This document shows positions 45,302 to 57,666 of a DNA stretch of 64,000 nucleotides, one piece after another. This stretch comes from a virus (Duplodnaviria; Caudoviricetes). Every line of letters begins with the position of its first letter. Position 1 is the stretch's first letter. Location of the stretch: positions 1 through 64,000 of the IMG/VR virus record IMGVR_UViG_3300043603_000010, one strand, 5' to 3'. The notes beneath the pieces were generated by a model, which worked only from the letters and a program-made list of their open reading frames with translations, was not told the DNA's origin and searched no databases. A program made the position numbers and the translations under genes.

Positions 45302-45837
45302 CGGACCGGGCCGGTCATCGTGTACGCGTCCGGGTGGAGTGGGCACCCGACGTGCCGGTCGGCGTGCATGTGCCGACGGCCGTCCGCCGCGCAGTGCGGA
45401 GAAGCGGGGCAGGTCGGCGAGCAGCGGCAGACCGCTCCGGCCGGGGGCTCGCGCCAGCCGGTCCATCCATGGTCGTCCTTGTCGGCGGTCCAGGCGGCCA
45501 GCGCGGCGGTGTCCGCTGCGCTCAGCGTCCCGATACCTCTGCCGCCTGACGCCGACTTCCAGCCGACCGAGACCGAGACGGTACCGGGGAACGGCGACCG
45601 CAGCCGGGCATAGTGCAGAGGGGTCTTGAACACCAGCTCCCGCAGGTGGTCAGTGCCCAGCCAGGTGCGCAGCTCGGTGAACTGCTCCCGCTCCAGCAGG
45701 AACGACGCCCCGCCCCCGATGGTCCGGTGGAACACACGCAGATCCGTGGTGCGGTCCAGCGGCTTCCGGTACCGGGGTCCGAGTTCGACCACCGTGCGAC
45801 CGTCGGCACAGCGTGCCTGGAATCCATCGATCTTCAT
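45298..45837 (-). CDS. Hypothetical protein
   Basis: GAGGAGAGAACG-ATG leader. Confidence 0.55.
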   Translation of the reverse strand: MKIDGFQARCADGRTVVELGPRYRKPLDRTTDLRVFHRTIGGGASFLLEREQFTELRTWLGTDHLRELVFKTPLHYARLRSPFPGTVSVSVGWKSASGGRGIGTLSAADTAALAAWTADKDDHGWTGWREPPAGAVCRCSPTCPASPHCAADGRRHMHADRHVGCPLHPDAYTMTGPVR

Positions 45838-45867
45838 CGTTCTCTCCTCGATCAAGTGGTGCTCGTG

Positions 45868-45940
45868 AGCCCCGAGCAGGTCTCGAACCTGCTGCCTGCT
45901 GATTACGAATCAGCTGCTCTACCGGATGAGCTACCGGGGC
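45868..45940 (-). tRNA. tRNA-Thr(CGT)
   Basis: GCCCCGG/TCGGGGC acceptor, GCTC/GAGC D-stem, GCTGA-TTCGTAA-TCAGC, GCAGG-TTCGAGA-CCTGC; no encoded CCA. Confidence 0.9.
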
Positions 45941-46010
45941 GGGAGGAGCTTTCTTCCAGAAGGACCGTCGCCGGGTATCTGGCCCGGCGGGGTACTCCCC
46001 GCCTTCTTCG

Positions 46011-46082
46011 CTCCCGCTCCGGGGCTCGAACCCGGCCAGCCGACGCCATGGACGCCTGCTGTCCTCCGGCAGTGGTGCGGGA
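46011..46082 (-). pseudogene. Degenerate tRNA-like element (CAT in loop)
   Basis: Good T-arm CCGGG-TTCGAGC-CCCGG, partial acceptor, weak D and anticodon arms, C33. Confidence 0.5.
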
Positions 46083-46112
46083 AGGTGCCCGGCCGGAGCC
46101 GGGCCGTACGGG

Positions 46113-46310
46113 TCAGACCTGGTCCTCCACCATGTGCTTCAGGTGCGCCTGGTCGGCGTCCCAGGCAGCGGCGTACTGGAGCGCCTCGCCCTCGCGGCAC
46201 ACGGCCACCGGGACGACGTCCCCGGTGCTCTCGTCCAGCTTGGCGGTACACCCGGTGTGCTCCACCAGGTGGCTCTCGAACTCGCGCTGGGTGCTCGGGT
46301 CTCCGAACAT
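46113..46310 (-). CDS. Small hypothetical protein
   Basis: AAGGAGAGAAGGA leader; MFGDPSTQREF. Confidence 0.55.
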   Translation of the reverse strand: MFGDPSTQREFESHLVEHTGCTAKLDESTGDVVPVAVCREGEALQYAAAWDADQAHLKHMVEDQV

Positions 46311-46345
46311 AGTGTCCTTCTCTCCTTTGTCGGGTGGTGCGTGCA

Positions 46346-46430
46346 GTGGCGGGCGGCGATTCGAACGCCGCACCCCTCGCCGGTCGCTCCTCTCCGGAGC
46401 TACTGGGTTCGGCTCTGCTCATGATCCGCC
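46346..46430 (-). ncRNA. tRNA-like element with T-arm and acceptor-like ends but atypical core
   Basis: GCGGCG-TTCGAAT-CGCCGC; GGCGG/CCGCC ends; no canonical anticodon arm. Confidence 0.4.
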
Positions 46431-46477
46431 AGTACAGATGCCTCTGTACTTCCAGCTGCCGGTGCGCACCGGCCGCG

Positions 46478-46549
46478 CTCCTCGCCGTGGATTCGAACCA
46501 CGATCAGCCACTCCAGGGGCGGCTGTCCTGCCGGTTGGACGAACGGGGA
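46478..46549 (-). tRNA. tRNA-Gln(CTG)-like, non-canonical (C33, acceptor mismatch)
   Basis: TCCCCGT/GCGAGGA, GTCC/GGAC, GCCGC-CCCTGGA-GTGGC, CGTGG-TTCGAAT-CCACG. Confidence 0.7.
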
Positions 46550-46619
46550 AGGTGTCCGGCCGGAGCCGGACCGTTCTTCGATCTCTTTCGCTCTTTTCCA
46601 TCTTACTGCGCACTTACGG

Positions 46620-46691
46620 TGGACGCAACGCGGGTCGAACGCGCATCCCGCCTCTTTTAAGGAGGCTGCTCTTCCGTTGAGCTATGCGCCC
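46620..46691 (-). tRNA. tRNA with UAA anticodon (nominally Leu, reads UUA) on a short-variable-loop body
   Basis: GGGCGCA/TGCGTCC-A73, GCTC-AACGGAA-GAGC, GCCTC-CTTAAAA-GAGGC, variable GGGAT, GCGCG-TTCGACC-CGCGT. Confidence 0.8.
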
Positions 46692-46697
46692 CCGGGG

Positions 46698-47405
46698 TCA
46701 GTCCTCCGGGACCTGTACAGGGGTGGCGAAGACACGGGTGTACGTGTTGATCGTGGGGTACTCCTCACTGCGGCCGTACACCTCCCAGCGCCGGGCCCTG
46801 GTCGCTTCTGCGACGGTACGCGCGAAGCCGGGGCCGATGCACACGGGTTCCCCGCCGTCGTCCGGCAGCACGCAGCGGCCGTTCTTCGTGAACGGTGCTC
46901 CGTCGACGTGGACGGAGACGACCACGCCACGACGGGCGGTGCCGCTGTCCGTCCAGCCGACCCACGATCCGGCCTCGAACGGCGCGGTGGCCGGACGCGG
47001 AACCGACCGCTTCTTGCGGGACCGCCTGACGTCGCGCACGACCGCTTCCGTCTCACCGGGGAAACTGGCCCGCAGCCGGGCGTACGCGCCGTCCTGGGGA
47101 CGCGCCTTCGGTCCGGTAAGGGCCAATTCGGCGTCCAGGTACCGGAGGCGTGCCTCACGCTCCTCCGCCTTCAGCACAGAGCGGGCTTCCAGGTCGACTC
47201 CGGGGCCGTAACCGGGATCCCGGGCCATTGCGGCGTAGTACTCCTCCTTGGCGTCGTCGCGGACCTTCTCCAGCCCGGCCAGGACGCCCGTGTAGCCGTC
47301 GCGCACGGCGGCGGTGACCGTCTTCGTGTGCGCGGCCTGCGTGCCTGATGTGGTGACTACGGTCTCCGCTCCAGCGAAGTGCAGCCTGGTGGTGTGCTCG
47401 GTCAT
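46698..47405 (-). CDS. Hypothetical protein
   Basis: GGAGGACGAC-ATG; SH3/KOW-like WVGW...RGVVV segment. Confidence 0.6.
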   Translation of the reverse strand: MTEHTTRLHFAGAETVVTTSGTQAAHTKTVTAAVRDGYTGVLAGLEKVRDDAKEEYYAAMARDPGYGPGVDLEARSVLKAEEREARLRYLDAELALTGPKARPQDGAYARLRASFPGETEAVVRDVRRSRKKRSVPRPATAPFEAGSWVGWTDSGTARRGVVVSVHVDGAPFTKNGRCVLPDDGGEPVCIGPGFARTVAEATRARRWEVYGRSEEYPTINTYTRVFATPVQVPED

Positions 47406-47860
47406 GTCGTCCTCCGTGCGGTGTGGTTGTACCAGGACACCGAGCGCGAGCAGGACCCGCAGCGGATCCACCGGCGCTTCGTCTGGGTGTTCTCGAACGA
47501 GACCGGCTGCGCGGGGTGCACCTCACGGGACCGCTGGAGGCAGTCCTGGCAGTCGTTGGCCTGCTCGTTGGGGCCCCGCAGCAGGAACGGCACGCCGTGC
47601 CCGCAGACGGCCGCCTGGGGGATGTCCCCGAACAGTCCGGGGAACTGCGCCCGGCCCGGGAACGCGGCACGGGCCGCCATCACGACGCCCTTGTAGCGGA
47701 ACCCGTCCAGGCCGTCGGCCAGGGCGCGGACGCGTTCCAGCGCGTCCAGCTCCCACTCCAGTTCCAGCCGTTCGAGCAGGACGCGCAGGGAGTCCTGCGT
47801 CTTCGGGTGCATGCCGTCCGCGAAGGACAGCAGGTCGTCACGTGCGGACATGGCTTTCAT
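47402..47860 (-). CDS. Hypothetical protein with Cys motifs
   Basis: GAGAGGAG RBS. Confidence 0.55.
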   Translation of the reverse strand: MKAMSARDDLLSFADGMHPKTQDSLRVLLERLELEWELDALERVRALADGLDGFRYKGVVMAARAAFPGRAQFPGLFGDIPQAAVCGHGVPFLLRGPNEQANDCQDCLQRSREVHPAQPVSFENTQTKRRWIRCGSCSRSVSWYNHTARRTT

Positions 47861-48419
47861 CTCCTCTCTCGGGGTGGGGCGCTCCGCACCCGTTGCAGGT
47901 GCAGCGCCCGGTGTCCTTGTCGCGGCACTTCGGGCAGCGGCAGTAGCAGAGCAGGAACCCGCGAGCGGGCCCGCAGTAGCTGGCGTGCTCCGGGGACAGC
48001 GGCGGGTGCTTGCGTGCGCCCTGCTCCACCAGGTCGACCAGCAGAGACGCCCGCCGCGCGGCGGTCCCCGGGTCCAGGCCTGCGTCCAGGTACGCCCGCA
48101 CCAGGTGGTCCACCACTGTGCGCCGCGCCGCTCGGCTGTCCTCCATGGCCTTCCTCCATCTGAGCATCCGCTGGTAGTCGTTCAGGGCGCGTCGGCAGCG
48201 TCGGCAGGGCGGGGTCCGCTCGCGCCGGTGGATCATCCATCCGGCGTAGCTGCCGCACTTCCCGCTGGTGCAGGCGGCTCGTGCCCGCAGGCAGTCCCCG
48301 CAGGGACGCTCGTTGCGGCGCCGGTGCCGCAGCCACCCGTCGTTGCTGCCGCAGTCCTTCAGGCCGATCCCCAGCATGCGGCGCTGGTCCTCCGTCCAGA
48401 CGACTCCGTGCCCGTTCAT
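47838..48419 (-). CDS. Protein with repeated CG-x-H-x-PC-x-C Zn motifs
   Basis: CGSNDGWLRH...PCGDC and CGSYAGWMIH...PCRRC; same motif as the 44954-45301 C-terminus. Confidence 0.65.
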   Translation of the reverse strand: MNGHGVVWTEDQRRMLGIGLKDCGSNDGWLRHRRRNERPCGDCLRARAACTSGKCGSYAGWMIHRRERTPPCRRCRRALNDYQRMLRWRKAMEDSRAARRTVVDHLVRAYLDAGLDPGTAARRASLLVDLVEQGARKHPPLSPEHASYCGPARGFLLCYCRCPKCRDKDTGRCTCNGCGAPHPERGDESHVRT

Positions 48420-48497
48420 TCGGCCTTCTCTCCTCGATCTGTTCAGGCGTACAGGACCGGGGTAGGCGTCCGGCAGTCAGCGCATCGGAGGTGCCCC

Positions 48498-48566
48498 GTG
48501 CTGGAGACCGTCCTGATCATCGTGCTCATCGTCGCCATCGTCCTGTTCGTCCTGCGACGGTTGTAG
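48498..48566 (+). CDS. 22-aa hydrophobic peptide on the opposite strand
   Basis: GGAGGT RBS; MLETVLIIVLIVAIVLFVLRRL. Confidence 0.6.
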   Translation: MLETVLIIVLIVAIVLFVLRRL

Positions 48567-48581
48567 CCGGTCGTCCCTGCG

Positions 48582-48653
48582 CACTCGCAGCCGGTCATGA
48601 TCCGGCATCTCCGCCTTGAAAGGGCGGCGGGCATCCGATTACCCCATGCGAGC
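48582..48653 (-). tRNA. tRNA-Glu(TTC)-like with atypical T-loop
   Basis: GCTCGCA/TGCGAGT-G73, GGGT/GCCC, CCGCC-CTTTCAA-GGCGG, GCCGG-ATCATGA-CCGGC. Confidence 0.7.
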
Positions 48654-49711: not shown

Positions 49712-49784
49712 TGCGCCCGGCAGGGGTCGAACCTGCGCGCTCCGGGGCTTCACTCCGGTGCTCTGCCAGCTGAGCTACGGACGC
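49712..49784 (-). tRNA. tRNA-Phe(GAA)-like
   Basis: GCGTCCG/CGGGCGC-A, GCTC-AGCTGGCA-GAGC, CCGGA-GTGAAGC-CCCGG (A-C mismatch, G32), GCAGG-TTCGACC-CCTGC. Confidence 0.75.
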
Positions 49785-50553: not shown

Positions 50554-50636
50554 TGCGCCCGGCCGGACTCGAACCAGCACTGTCACCGACTGCCCTTACA
50601 GGCGTCGGCTGCCTCTGCCTATTGGGCTACGGACGC
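50554..50636 (-). tRNA. tRNA-like element (GTA/Tyr in loop) with extended anticodon arm
   Basis: Same acceptor as 49712-49784; D-arm GCCCAATAGGCAGAGGC; GCCGA-CGCCTGTAAGGGCAG-TCGGT; GCTGG-TTCGAGT-CCGGC. Confidence 0.6.
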
Positions 50637-56418: not shown

Positions 56419-57666
56419 TCAGCGGTTGGTCAGCGTCATCAGCTGACGGTGCGCCTTCGTCTTCGTCTCGCCGTCGGTGTCCAGCAGCAGGGCGGAGGCG
56501 CGGGCGATCTCCTCCGTCATGGTCTTGCCGGGCCGCTTCGGGGCGACGTGGTCCAGGTAGTCCGTGATGGCCCGCTCCGCCGCGTAGGCGGTCCGGCCCA
56601 GGTTCCCGGCCTCGGTGCCGAACATCCCCATCAGGGTCTCGGTCCGCTTGGCCGCGATGGTCACCGCTGCCTTCTTCGTGGTGTCCTCCTCCGGCGTCCA
56701 CAGGGTGTCCAGCAGGGCCTGGAACTCGTTCAGCGCGATGTCGGTGTGCGCCAGCGCGGTCTCCTCAGCGGCGAACGCCTCGAAGTAGGTCACCGACATG
56801 CCGAGCGCCCGGCGGGCCTCCTTGACCCGGTCGGTGATCCCGGCGGTGTGGCGGATCTTCCAGATCCGCTGCGCGTCGCGGACCGCGAAGCCCTCGGTGT
56901 TCTTGCACAGCGGACGCCACGGAGTGGTCATCGCCTGGAAGGACCCGGTGCCGTCGTGGGTGTTGCGGACCATCACGAACGGAACGATCTCATCGTTGAT
57001 GCCCTCGGGGTCGATCGTGACCGTCTGCGGCAGCCGCAGCGAGACGAACACGCTCGCTCCGTTCCGCATGGTTCCGGCGGACTCGAAGGTCACCGACATG
57101 TCGCCCACCAGCTCCTGGAGGAACCCGAAGGCGTCGGTGTTCTGGGTCGGGGTGTAGCCCGCCCCGACGGCACCGAGCGGGGCGCCGGTGTCGGTGCGCA
57201 CGGTGACGAACCGGCCGGGGTGCTCGCGGGTCTCGCCGTCCCAGGTGAACGACGCGGGGATCTTGGCAACGGTGAAGTCGTTACCGGACAGCCTGAGTGC
57301 CTCTTCGATGTCCGAAGTGCCCTCGGGGATGACCTGGCCCAGCGCGTGCCATGCGGGCTTGCCCGCGAGGTAGAGCGCGGTGGACCCGTCGGCCAGTGTG
57401 TCCAGGCCGGTGTTGGCGGTGACCTCGATCAGTTCGCCGGTGGCCGCGTTGCGGTTGACCGTGAAGGTCTCTCCGGCATCCCAGCCCTCGGTGACGGTGT
57501 AGGTGTCGCCGCTGACGCGGGCCTTGCCGTCGGCGACCATCTTGTCCAGGCCCGCGATCCGGTCGGCGGCGGATGCGGCGCGCCGGATGTCGGCGGTCCG
57601 CTCGTTCTCCAGCTGGTTCACCTTGGCGGTGGCGAAACGGTCGTTGACGTCGATCGGTGCGGACAT
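56419..57666 (-). CDS. DUF932 / TIGR03299-like phage-plasmid protein
   Basis: PAWHALG...FVTVRTDT...LGAVG..YTPTQN..AF.FL...FESAG.MRNG..VF...NTHDGTGS...TPWRPLCKNT...IRHT. Confidence 0.85.
   Translation of the reverse strand: MSAPIDVNDRFATAKVNQLENERTADIRRAASAADRIAGLDKMVADGKARVSGDTYTVTEGWDAGETFTVNRNAATGELIEVTANTGLDTLADGSTALYLAGKPAWHALGQVIPEGTSDIEEALRLSGNDFTVAKIPASFTWDGETREHPGRFVTVRTDTGAPLGAVGAGYTPTQNTDAFGFLQELVGDMSVTFESAGTMRNGASVFVSLRLPQTVTIDPEGINDEIVPFVMVRNTHDGTGSFQAMTTPWRPLCKNTEGFAVRDAQRIWKIRHTAGITDRVKEARRALGMSVTYFEAFAAEETALAHTDIALNEFQALLDTLWTPEEDTTKKAAVTIAAKRTETLMGMFGTEAGNLGRTAYAAERAITDYLDHVAPKRPGKTMTEEIARASALLLDTDGETKTKAHRQLMTLTNR

Follow-up and report, generated by a model that had tools for sequence, protein, structure and literature searches.

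The window analysed here is the first 64 kb of the 90,647-bp record IMGVR_UViG_3300043603_000010, the genome of the phage under study (G000). On the minus strand at 46620..46691 lies a class I tRNA gene with the anticodon UAA, which scores 57.2 bits against the Rfam model RF00005 (gathering score 29, E=1e-9) and is labelled tRNA-Leu(taa) by ARAGORN. The tRNA is canonical in architecture and 72 nucleotides long, nucleotide 17 being absent in canonical numbering. Its acceptor stem is computed to pair as G1:C72, G2:C71, G3·U70, C4:G69, G5:C68, C6:G67 and A7:U66, with the 5′ half of the G3·U70 wobble at 46689 and the 3′ half at 46623 (both minus strand), followed by C71, C72 and the discriminator base A73 at 46622-46620, A73 itself being at 46620. 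The D-stem is an ordinary one of four base pairs (GCUC/GAGC with the loop AACGGAA; D-arm UAGCUCAACGGAAGAGC), the anticodon stem has five base pairs, the variable loop consists of the five nucleotides GGGAU, the loop of the T-arm is UUCGACC, and all four stems are fully paired. The anticodon U34 A35 A36 (46657..46659, minus strand), assigned by reading the sequence, lies within the loop C32 U33 U34 A35 A36 A37 A38 (46655-46661, minus strand). All tertiary positions are standard (U8-A14, A15-U48, G18 and G19, A21, A26-G44, G46, G53-C61, U54-A58, U55 and C56), and position 20 is A, not G. The flanking sequence CCG on the 3′ side means that C74 and C75 are encoded but the full CCA is not, as in many tRNA genes of the host. 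As in the bldA tRNA, A36-A37 follow U34-A35, so that the usual modification of A37 is plausible. Folded as bare sequence, the tRNA has a minimum-free-energy structure other than the cloverleaf, but this is common among tRNA transcripts and was not weighed against the gene. An earlier note, made from the sequence alone, had described a 72-nucleotide cloverleaf with a UAA anticodon, A73 and a five-nucleotide variable loop; these features are real, as RF00005, ARAGORN and the tertiary positions agree. The coordinates given there also stand, while the strand, which had been left unstated, is minus, and the G3·U70 pair had been missed.

The tRNA gene is part of an operon. The stop codon of a 235-aa gene with no assigned function (46698..47405, minus strand; identified by its open reading frame and GC3 frame) is located 6 nucleotides before base 1 of the tRNA. 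The 235-aa product had no Pfam or PHROG match and only one homologue (37% identity), whose contigs are without tRNA. No promoter-like or terminator-like sites were found within 45700-48600. Given the 6-nucleotide spacing and the lack of a promoter or terminator of its own, the tRNA(UAA) is expected to be co-transcribed and cut from the operon transcript. The next element downstream in the same operon, 70 nucleotides from tRNA(UAA), is an irregular tRNA-like Gln(CUG) element (46478..46549, minus strand; detected by ARAGORN, 37.7 bits with RF00005) that has C33, an anticodon stem of 6 bp and a C·A mismatch. A canonical tRNA-Thr(CGU) (45868..45940, minus strand; 62 bits with RF00005) also belongs to this operon. 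Elsewhere in the window (50554-50636, minus strand), a tRNA-like gene of 84 nt has a long variable arm, what seems to be a four-base anticodon (CCUG) and an acceptor stem identical to that of a nearby tRNA-Phe(GAA) (49712-49784, minus strand), of which it is apparently a paralogue that has diverged. Irregularities are also present in several other tRNAs of the operon, with C33, stem mismatches or T-loops that are not of the TΨC type; with so many irregular tRNA-like neighbours, the cluster may be evolving fast.

This arrangement bears on the question of whether the anticodon is used at all. The tRNA fold could instead be a processing signal, at which RNase P and 3′ nucleases would cut the polycistronic transcript, or a decoy or replacement against defences that target tRNA, the anticodon being non-coding in either case. 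A start so close behind the upstream stop codon with no separate promoter or terminator, in an operon studded with tRNA and tRNA-like elements of which several are irregular, is what such a role would predict. Unlike its irregular neighbours, however, the tRNA(UAA) keeps every feature needed for ribosomal function, and no nuclease defence specific for tRNA-Leu(UAA) was identified in this analysis. The homologues of the tRNA, described below, also bear on this alternative.

The G000 genome has 69% G+C, is complete according to CheckV, and encodes a portal, capsid protein, tape measure, terminase, WhiB-like regulators and a D5-type primase-helicase. It has no close cultured relative, as judged by portal and primase identities of no more than 40%. 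Capsid alignment identified more than 550 relatives in IMG/VR, and when named genomes alone are considered, the ten best capsid matches (49-57% identity) all come from Streptomyces isolates. The Ro60-like gene of G000 has its nearest matches in Streptomycetaceae. A Streptomyces host is well supported by these sequence relationships and by the WhiB-like genes, and with it the relevance of bldA that the earlier note had supposed. Three contigs of Streptomyces isolates that carry capsid relatives (L555, 95.7 kb; L556, 92.2 kb; L558, 92.7 kb) stand alone, and because their lengths of 92-96 kb approximate that of the phage, they may be plasmid-like prophages. The phage group may accordingly be maintained outside the chromosome, as prophages of the phage-plasmid kind. 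G000 itself would be a temperate Streptomyces phage of approximately 90 kb, possibly a phage-plasmid. The bldA tRNA is described in PMC2000904 as the only cellular decoder of UUA in Streptomyces. UUA is a regulatory codon in these bacteria, through which the bldA tRNA acts as a gate for aerial growth and for the production of antibiotics.

Searches with the tRNA itself were uninformative: a set of 50,697 phage records contained no megablast or blastn match to the gene and its flanking sequence, the exact anticodon-arm pattern found only chance hairpins in low-GC phages of IMG/VR, and nothing was found with the 5′ half of the tRNA in genomes or with the D-arm/T-arm pattern in metagenomes. Homologues were found among the relatives of the phage. 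A 91.4-kb phage (G005) with structural proteins 37-43% identical to those of G000 has a class I tRNA(UAA) with G3·U70, A73 and different stems, and a metagenome contig (L553) carries a tRNA that is nearly the same as that of G005 and likewise has G·U at 3:70. A 67-kb phage (G026) with a 52% identical capsid protein has a homologue with A3:U70 as its sole tRNA, which was found by a pattern that leaves the acceptor stem unconstrained. An 82-kb phage (G019) has a class I tRNA(UAA) with C3:G70 and the loop UUUAAAA, and its acceptor stem is that of tRNA-Phe(GAA) in a sister phage. A Streptomyces prophage (G008, on a contig of NPDC051320; L635:187-259, 1486-1558) contains a GC hairpin, the sequence CACCCA, a class I tRNA(UAA), a 370-aa gene and tRNA-Ile(UAU); the product of the 370-aa gene is 54% identical to the protein encoded at 56419-57666 in G000. 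The only acceptor register with six pairs in the prophage tRNA gives G3:C70, so that position 3:70 is ambiguous there, probably G:C. Between them, the two tRNAs of this prophage-like cassette in the chromosome of Streptomyces sp. NPDC051320 match two A-ending codons that are among the rarest in Streptomyces.

Among approximately 110 phage and host tRNAs, those of G000, G026 and G005 are mutual nearest neighbours. In an alignment of the six homologous sequences, 95% of stem cells are paired and 13 of the 21 pairs have changed on both sides; none of 500 shuffles reached the observed covariation and slid controls collapsed, although with six related sequences the shuffle, with which the slid control agrees, is indicative and does not give a probability. 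The segment U33-A38 of the anticodon loop is invariant in all six. Therefore, the fold and the anticodon are under selection, and an assembly error in the anticodon loop is unlikely because homologues in five other sequences share the U33-A38 loop. The distribution of the tRNA is nonetheless sparse. The CUUAAAA pattern was missing from 30 of the 31 long relative contigs scanned (of the more than 550 capsid relatives), a full tRNA survey added only G019, and no tRNA at all is encoded by G001, whose capsid protein is the most similar (61% identity). The absence of tRNA(UAA) from most relatives in the phage group counts against a selected function.

The conservation of the loop also bears on the proposal that the tRNA is a processing signal or a decoy. 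The G008 prophage, in which a GC hairpin and CACCCA precede the tRNA and its neighbouring gene, is consistent with such a role, but pure punctuation would not have spared U33-A38 from change in all six homologues when the stems vary. A non-decoding role is considered unlikely.

The same evidence can be set against a recent origin. The gene might be a drifting or recently mutated copy of tRNA-Val(UAC), through C36>A and C70>U, or of tRNA-Phe(GAA), through G34>U, left uncharged or charged with valine or phenylalanine to little consequence. The closest host body is indeed that of tRNA-Val(UAC), identical at 53 of 72 positions, with the same GGGCG start and a loop, CUUACAA, that is one base off; A35, A36 and A73, which a tRNA-Phe derivative would have, are present in the G000 tRNA; the G019 copy has a Phe-like body and the acceptor stem of a sister-phage tRNA-Phe(GAA); and two soil contigs have plain tRNA-Phe bodies with UAA. 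Yet the identity to host tRNA-Val is no higher than that to tRNA-Lys or tRNA-Ile, the body is no closer to tRNA-Phe than to tRNA-Val or tRNA-Lys, and the gene recurs, with covarying stems and an unchanged anticodon loop, in relatives that share no more than 40-55% protein identity, which speaks for selection over a long time and against a recent accident. A mutant copy of little consequence is considered very unlikely.

The soil metagenome contigs just mentioned (L539 and L548, approximately 70% G+C) have actinobacterial tRNA-Phe bodies (GGCCAGG/GGGCAGG...GGUACGAGC...) in which UAA arises by the single change G34>U. If phenylalanyl-tRNA synthetase still charges them, UUA and UUG would be read as phenylalanine.

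An origin from tRNA-Lys, suggested by the earlier note on the basis of a Lys-type body, was rejected. The tRNA-Lys(CUU) of the host is merely one of several tRNAs with approximately 53 of 72 identical positions, and the host tRNA-Lys acceptor stems are GCGCCGC (CUU) or begin with G1·U72 (UUU), compared with GGGCGCA in G000. Lysyl-tRNA synthetase requires U35, and position 35 of the G000 tRNA is A.

Which amino acid the tRNA carries is a question with two serious candidates. With the bldA tRNA-Leu(UAA), the tRNA shares the anticodon, the target codon and the host clade. The bldA tRNA belongs to class II, has 85 nucleotides in the Streptomyces genome examined, and has a long variable arm, the acceptor sequence GCCCGGA and the loop CUUAAAC, whereas the G000 tRNA is a class I tRNA of 72 nucleotides with an unrelated body and G3·U70. 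It has the UAA anticodon and A73 of the class II (bldA-type) tRNAs, but neither their variable arm of more than 10 nucleotides nor their 3-bp D-stem of the GGYAGAC type. The earlier note had taken the short variable loop as an argument against leucine, and this argument does not hold. The single leucyl-tRNA synthetase of S. coelicolor (ScoLeuRS) charges tRNA-Leu of both types, the type I form being a native tRNA-Leu(CAA) whose variable loop has five nucleotides (Fan et al. 2019, PMC6614811). On type I tRNA-Leu, A73 is dispensable to ScoLeuRS, and U8-A14, the five-nucleotide length of the loop and C74 matter (PMC6614811); the G000 tRNA has all three. Charging of the G000 tRNA with leucine is feasible because the Streptomyces enzyme accepts type I tRNA-Leu.

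Class I tRNAs with the UAA anticodon are also common, so that a short variable arm is by itself no anomaly. A scan for class I tRNAs with the loop CUUAAAA, G1-G3, C70-C72 and A73 (the G3:C70 pattern) found 87 viral and at least 120 cellular loci. Nearly all of the loci listed have the D-arm GUAGCCCAryGGyAGAGGC and the variable loop NCAGY, which are the same in the tRNA-Leu(CAA) of Streptomyces; the type I D-arm is distinguished by a 3-bp stem, a 13·22 mismatch and GYCC...AGAGRC. Members with UAA (73-75 nt, A73) are chromosomal in many metagenome-assembled genomes (MAGs) of Acidimicrobiales and Planctomycetota and occur in dozens of low-GC phages (loci L180-L346), and a Streptomyces example with the type I hallmarks is the tRNA-Leu(caa) of G004 (L146-L156). 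By these hallmarks, type I tRNA-Leu(UAA) forms a family of wide distribution, which takes in Acidimicrobiales, Planctomycetota and low-GC phages.

The G000 tRNA resembles this family in its class I size, five-nucleotide variable loop, U8-A14, A73 and leucine-box anticodon, but it has an ordinary GCUC/GAGC D-stem and the variable loop GGGAU in place of the hallmarks, which are present in 134 of the 136 class I UAA tRNAs with G3:C70. By D-arm and variable loop, it lies outside the type I tRNA-Leu(UAA) family. Its charging with leucine cannot be taken for granted, given that the hallmarks are absent and that ScoLeuRS refuses at least one type I tRNA-Leu, that of human mitochondria (PMC6614811).

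The acceptor end is of the alanine type. In the host reference set, which comprises the 66 tRNAs of one complete Streptomyces genome, the four tRNA-Ala genes all have G3·U70 together with G1:C72, G2:C71 and A73, and none of the 62 other tRNAs has G3·U70. The tRNA-Ala(CGC) of the host also has C4:G69, as in G000. Alanyl-tRNA synthetase (AlaRS) is stated to recognise G3:U70 and to ignore the anticodon (PMC8583063; 10.1101/2022.11.23.517754). Of the elements recognised by this enzyme, the G000 tRNA has G3·U70, A73, G2:C71 and G1:C72, and has A instead of G20. Because the acceptor end is of this type and AlaRS is blind to the anticodon, the tRNA should accept alanine, and alanine charging that is at least partial is predicted from sequence for the tRNAs of G000, G005 and the L553 contig. 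Engineered or natural anticodon variants of tRNA-Ala that mistranslate, for example those in 10.1101/2022.11.23.517754, have G1:C72, G2:C71, G3·U70 and A73 in common with it. The G000 tRNA differs from tRNA-Ala in that its body outside the acceptor end is not that of tRNA-Ala, it has A20, it is carried by a phage, and the determinant varies among its homologues. The suggestion in the earlier note that another amino acid might be charged was thus reasonable, but the signal is the alanine determinant, which had not been seen. The amino acid carried may be leucine, alanine or both, leucine being feasible and alanine predicted.

When U70 was substituted for C70 in the scan pattern, 2 viral and 13 cellular loci were found, of which approximately 8 are real tRNAs. 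Among distinct, well-folded class I UAA tRNAs that start with GGG, the ordinary D-arm is present in 6 of 7 with G3·U70 and in 2 of 136 with G3:C70 (Fisher p=2e-8), and this split indicates that the G3·U70 tRNAs are a separate body type and not sloppy type I tRNA-Leu genes. In an unbiased sample of 33 class I UAA tRNAs with standard bodies from viral and metagenome contigs, position 3:70 was C:G in 10, A:U in 7, G:C in 7, G·U in 6 and U:A in 3. G·U is therefore enriched relative to ordinary non-alanine tRNAs (6 of 33, compared with 0 of 62 in the host), yet it is a minority. Across the six homologues, 3:70 is G·U in three, A:U in one, C:G in one and ambiguous (probably G:C) in one, and so is not fixed. 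G3·U70 was considered as a hallmark of the G000 tRNA lineage and dropped after the control scans for G3:C70 and the discovery of homologues with A:U, C:G and G:C.

These data can be weighed for a more elaborate possibility, deliberate mistranslation, in which AlaRS would charge the tRNA through G3·U70, alanine would be inserted at UUA, the phage would avoid TTA, and the bldA regulon of the host (adpA and pathway regulators) would be reprogrammed or disabled, with effects on development and antibiotic production. G000 has the full AlaRS set of G1:C72, G2:C71, G3·U70 and A73, which G005 and L553 retain despite changes in the rest of the acceptor stem; G3·U70 tracks the ordinary body and is enriched as described above; and strong avoidance of TTA by the phage, documented below, would fit a codon that is misread. 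On the other hand, 3:70 is A:U in G026, C:G in G019 and probably G:C in the G008 prophage, and single transitions, the usual path of drift, are enough to lead from G:C through G·U to A:U. UUA is so nearly unused that mischarging would cost little and the phage may just put up with G·U, and the tRNA has A in place of G20. Deliberate recoding to alanine is possible but not favoured, and mistranslation aimed at the bldA regulon is judged unlikely. In a broader form, an AlaRS-charged phage tRNA that reads UUA might be either a tool for codon-specific mistranslation or a means of unlocking the TTA-gated developmental and antibiotic regulon of the host, with the phage shielded by its own avoidance of TTA; this is quite improbable. 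If alanine is inserted, the tRNA would be a natural viral case of sense-codon mistranslation.

TTA codons, which the earlier note had proposed to count, are nearly absent from the phage. With a gene caller that does not penalise codons ending in A or T, the counts were 1-2 in approximately 24,000 codons of G000, 2 in G005, 1 in G026 and 5 in G019. Most of them are located in antisense shadow frames or among the first codons of small orfs, where the start calls are probably wrong, so that the number of credible TTA codons is 0-2 per phage, with none in G026. TTA is the most avoided codon in all four phages; in G000 its count is roughly a tenth of that of other rare codons (CTA 33, ATA 12, AAA 25). 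The other tRNAs of G000 (Thr, Gln, Glu and Phe) match the abundant codons ACG, CAG, GAG, GAA and TTC, and the UAA tRNA does not. G000 thus resembles other large tailed phages in having the tRNA(UAA) within a tRNA cluster in an operon, but ordinary phage tRNAs usually match frequent phage codons, whereas this one matches a codon used 1-2 times in the genome. The scarcity of codons to decode would also suit a tRNA that serves as a processing signal or decoy.

The credible TTA codons are at L793 of the primase-helicase of G000 (genome position 81976) and at codon 804 of the homologous gene of G019. The last 150 or so codons of the D5-type primase-helicase of G000 (genome 81700-82149; L018:2701-3150) encode a tail that is acidic, rich in proline and serine, and disordered, with a GC3 of 0.62-0.76 compared with 0.94-0.99 upstream, and this tail contains the one credible TTA of G000. 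The credible sites lie where GC3 falls from about 0.97 to about 0.6. In G019, the TTA codon is within a linker of low GC3 where the primase-helicase gene is fused to the downstream gene. The residue inserted at UUA cannot be deduced from alignments because no TTA site falls in a conserved column, which leaves such a test powerless.

The explanation proposed here, with moderate confidence, is that the gene encodes a functional elongator tRNA, selected in a lineage of temperate Streptomyces phages as a decoder of UUA that is independent of bldA. The tRNA would be transcribed within the long leftward operon and freed by normal tRNA processing, and it would belong to a small lineage of class I tRNA(UAA) that recurs in related phages and prophages of Streptomyces. 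Its role would be to decode UUA, and perhaps UUG by wobble, without the developmentally limited bldA tRNA, allowing ribosomes to pass the very rare UUA codons of phage genes, one of them in the primase-helicase tail, and possibly of host genes. The primase-helicase of the phage itself is a plausible beneficiary, and G·U at 3:70 could be tolerated because any residue would do in its disordered tail. Of the bypass of bldA control suggested by the earlier note, the material parts are borne out, in that the tRNA is real, has an anticodon for UUA, recurs in relatives, is the sole tRNA of G026 and matches a codon that is barely used; the function would follow if the tRNA is expressed and charged as predicted, and UUA reading is probably made independent of bldA by it.

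Two observations sit uneasily with the proposed decoding of UUA. Avoidance of TTA is unexpected if a reliable Leu-tRNA(UAA) has long been available to these phages, and counts against it. G026 keeps the tRNA without a credible TTA codon, and therefore service to the phage's own codons is not the whole reason for its retention. The tRNA may affect TTA-containing genes of the host or be a form of insurance. While a phage infects its host or persists as a lysogen, a UUA decoder of its own could uncouple the bldA gate. Neither tRNA genes in phages nor tRNA-Leu of type I are new; the literature searched contained no description of a phage tRNA(UAA) in connection with bldA, and none of the mismatch with codon usage or the alanine-type acceptor stem in a tRNA(UAA) of Streptomyces phages.

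Class I UAA tRNAs with the ends of textbook tRNA-Ala also occur in cells. Three MAGs of Dehalococcoidia (L161:3761-3833, L164:128-200, L171:464-536) and one of Parcubacteria (L166:295-367) encode tRNAs of this kind (GGGGGCG...CGCCUCCA) with G3·U70, G4:C69 and A73, in genomes of 42-51% G+C in which UUA is presumably a common codon. These tRNAs may represent an ambiguity of leucine and alanine, a tRNA-Leu with an anti-determinant for AlaRS, or the cargo of mobile elements. A further gene resembling tRNA-Ala (GGGGUCA...UGGCUCCA), with the six-nucleotide loop UUAAAA, is found on a viral contig of 45% G+C that has 33 tRNAs and a tmRNA (L158:7773-7844). It adjoins a normal tRNA-Ala(UGC), and the same phage possesses a class II tRNA-Leu(UAA) and a suppressor tRNA with the anticodon UUA.
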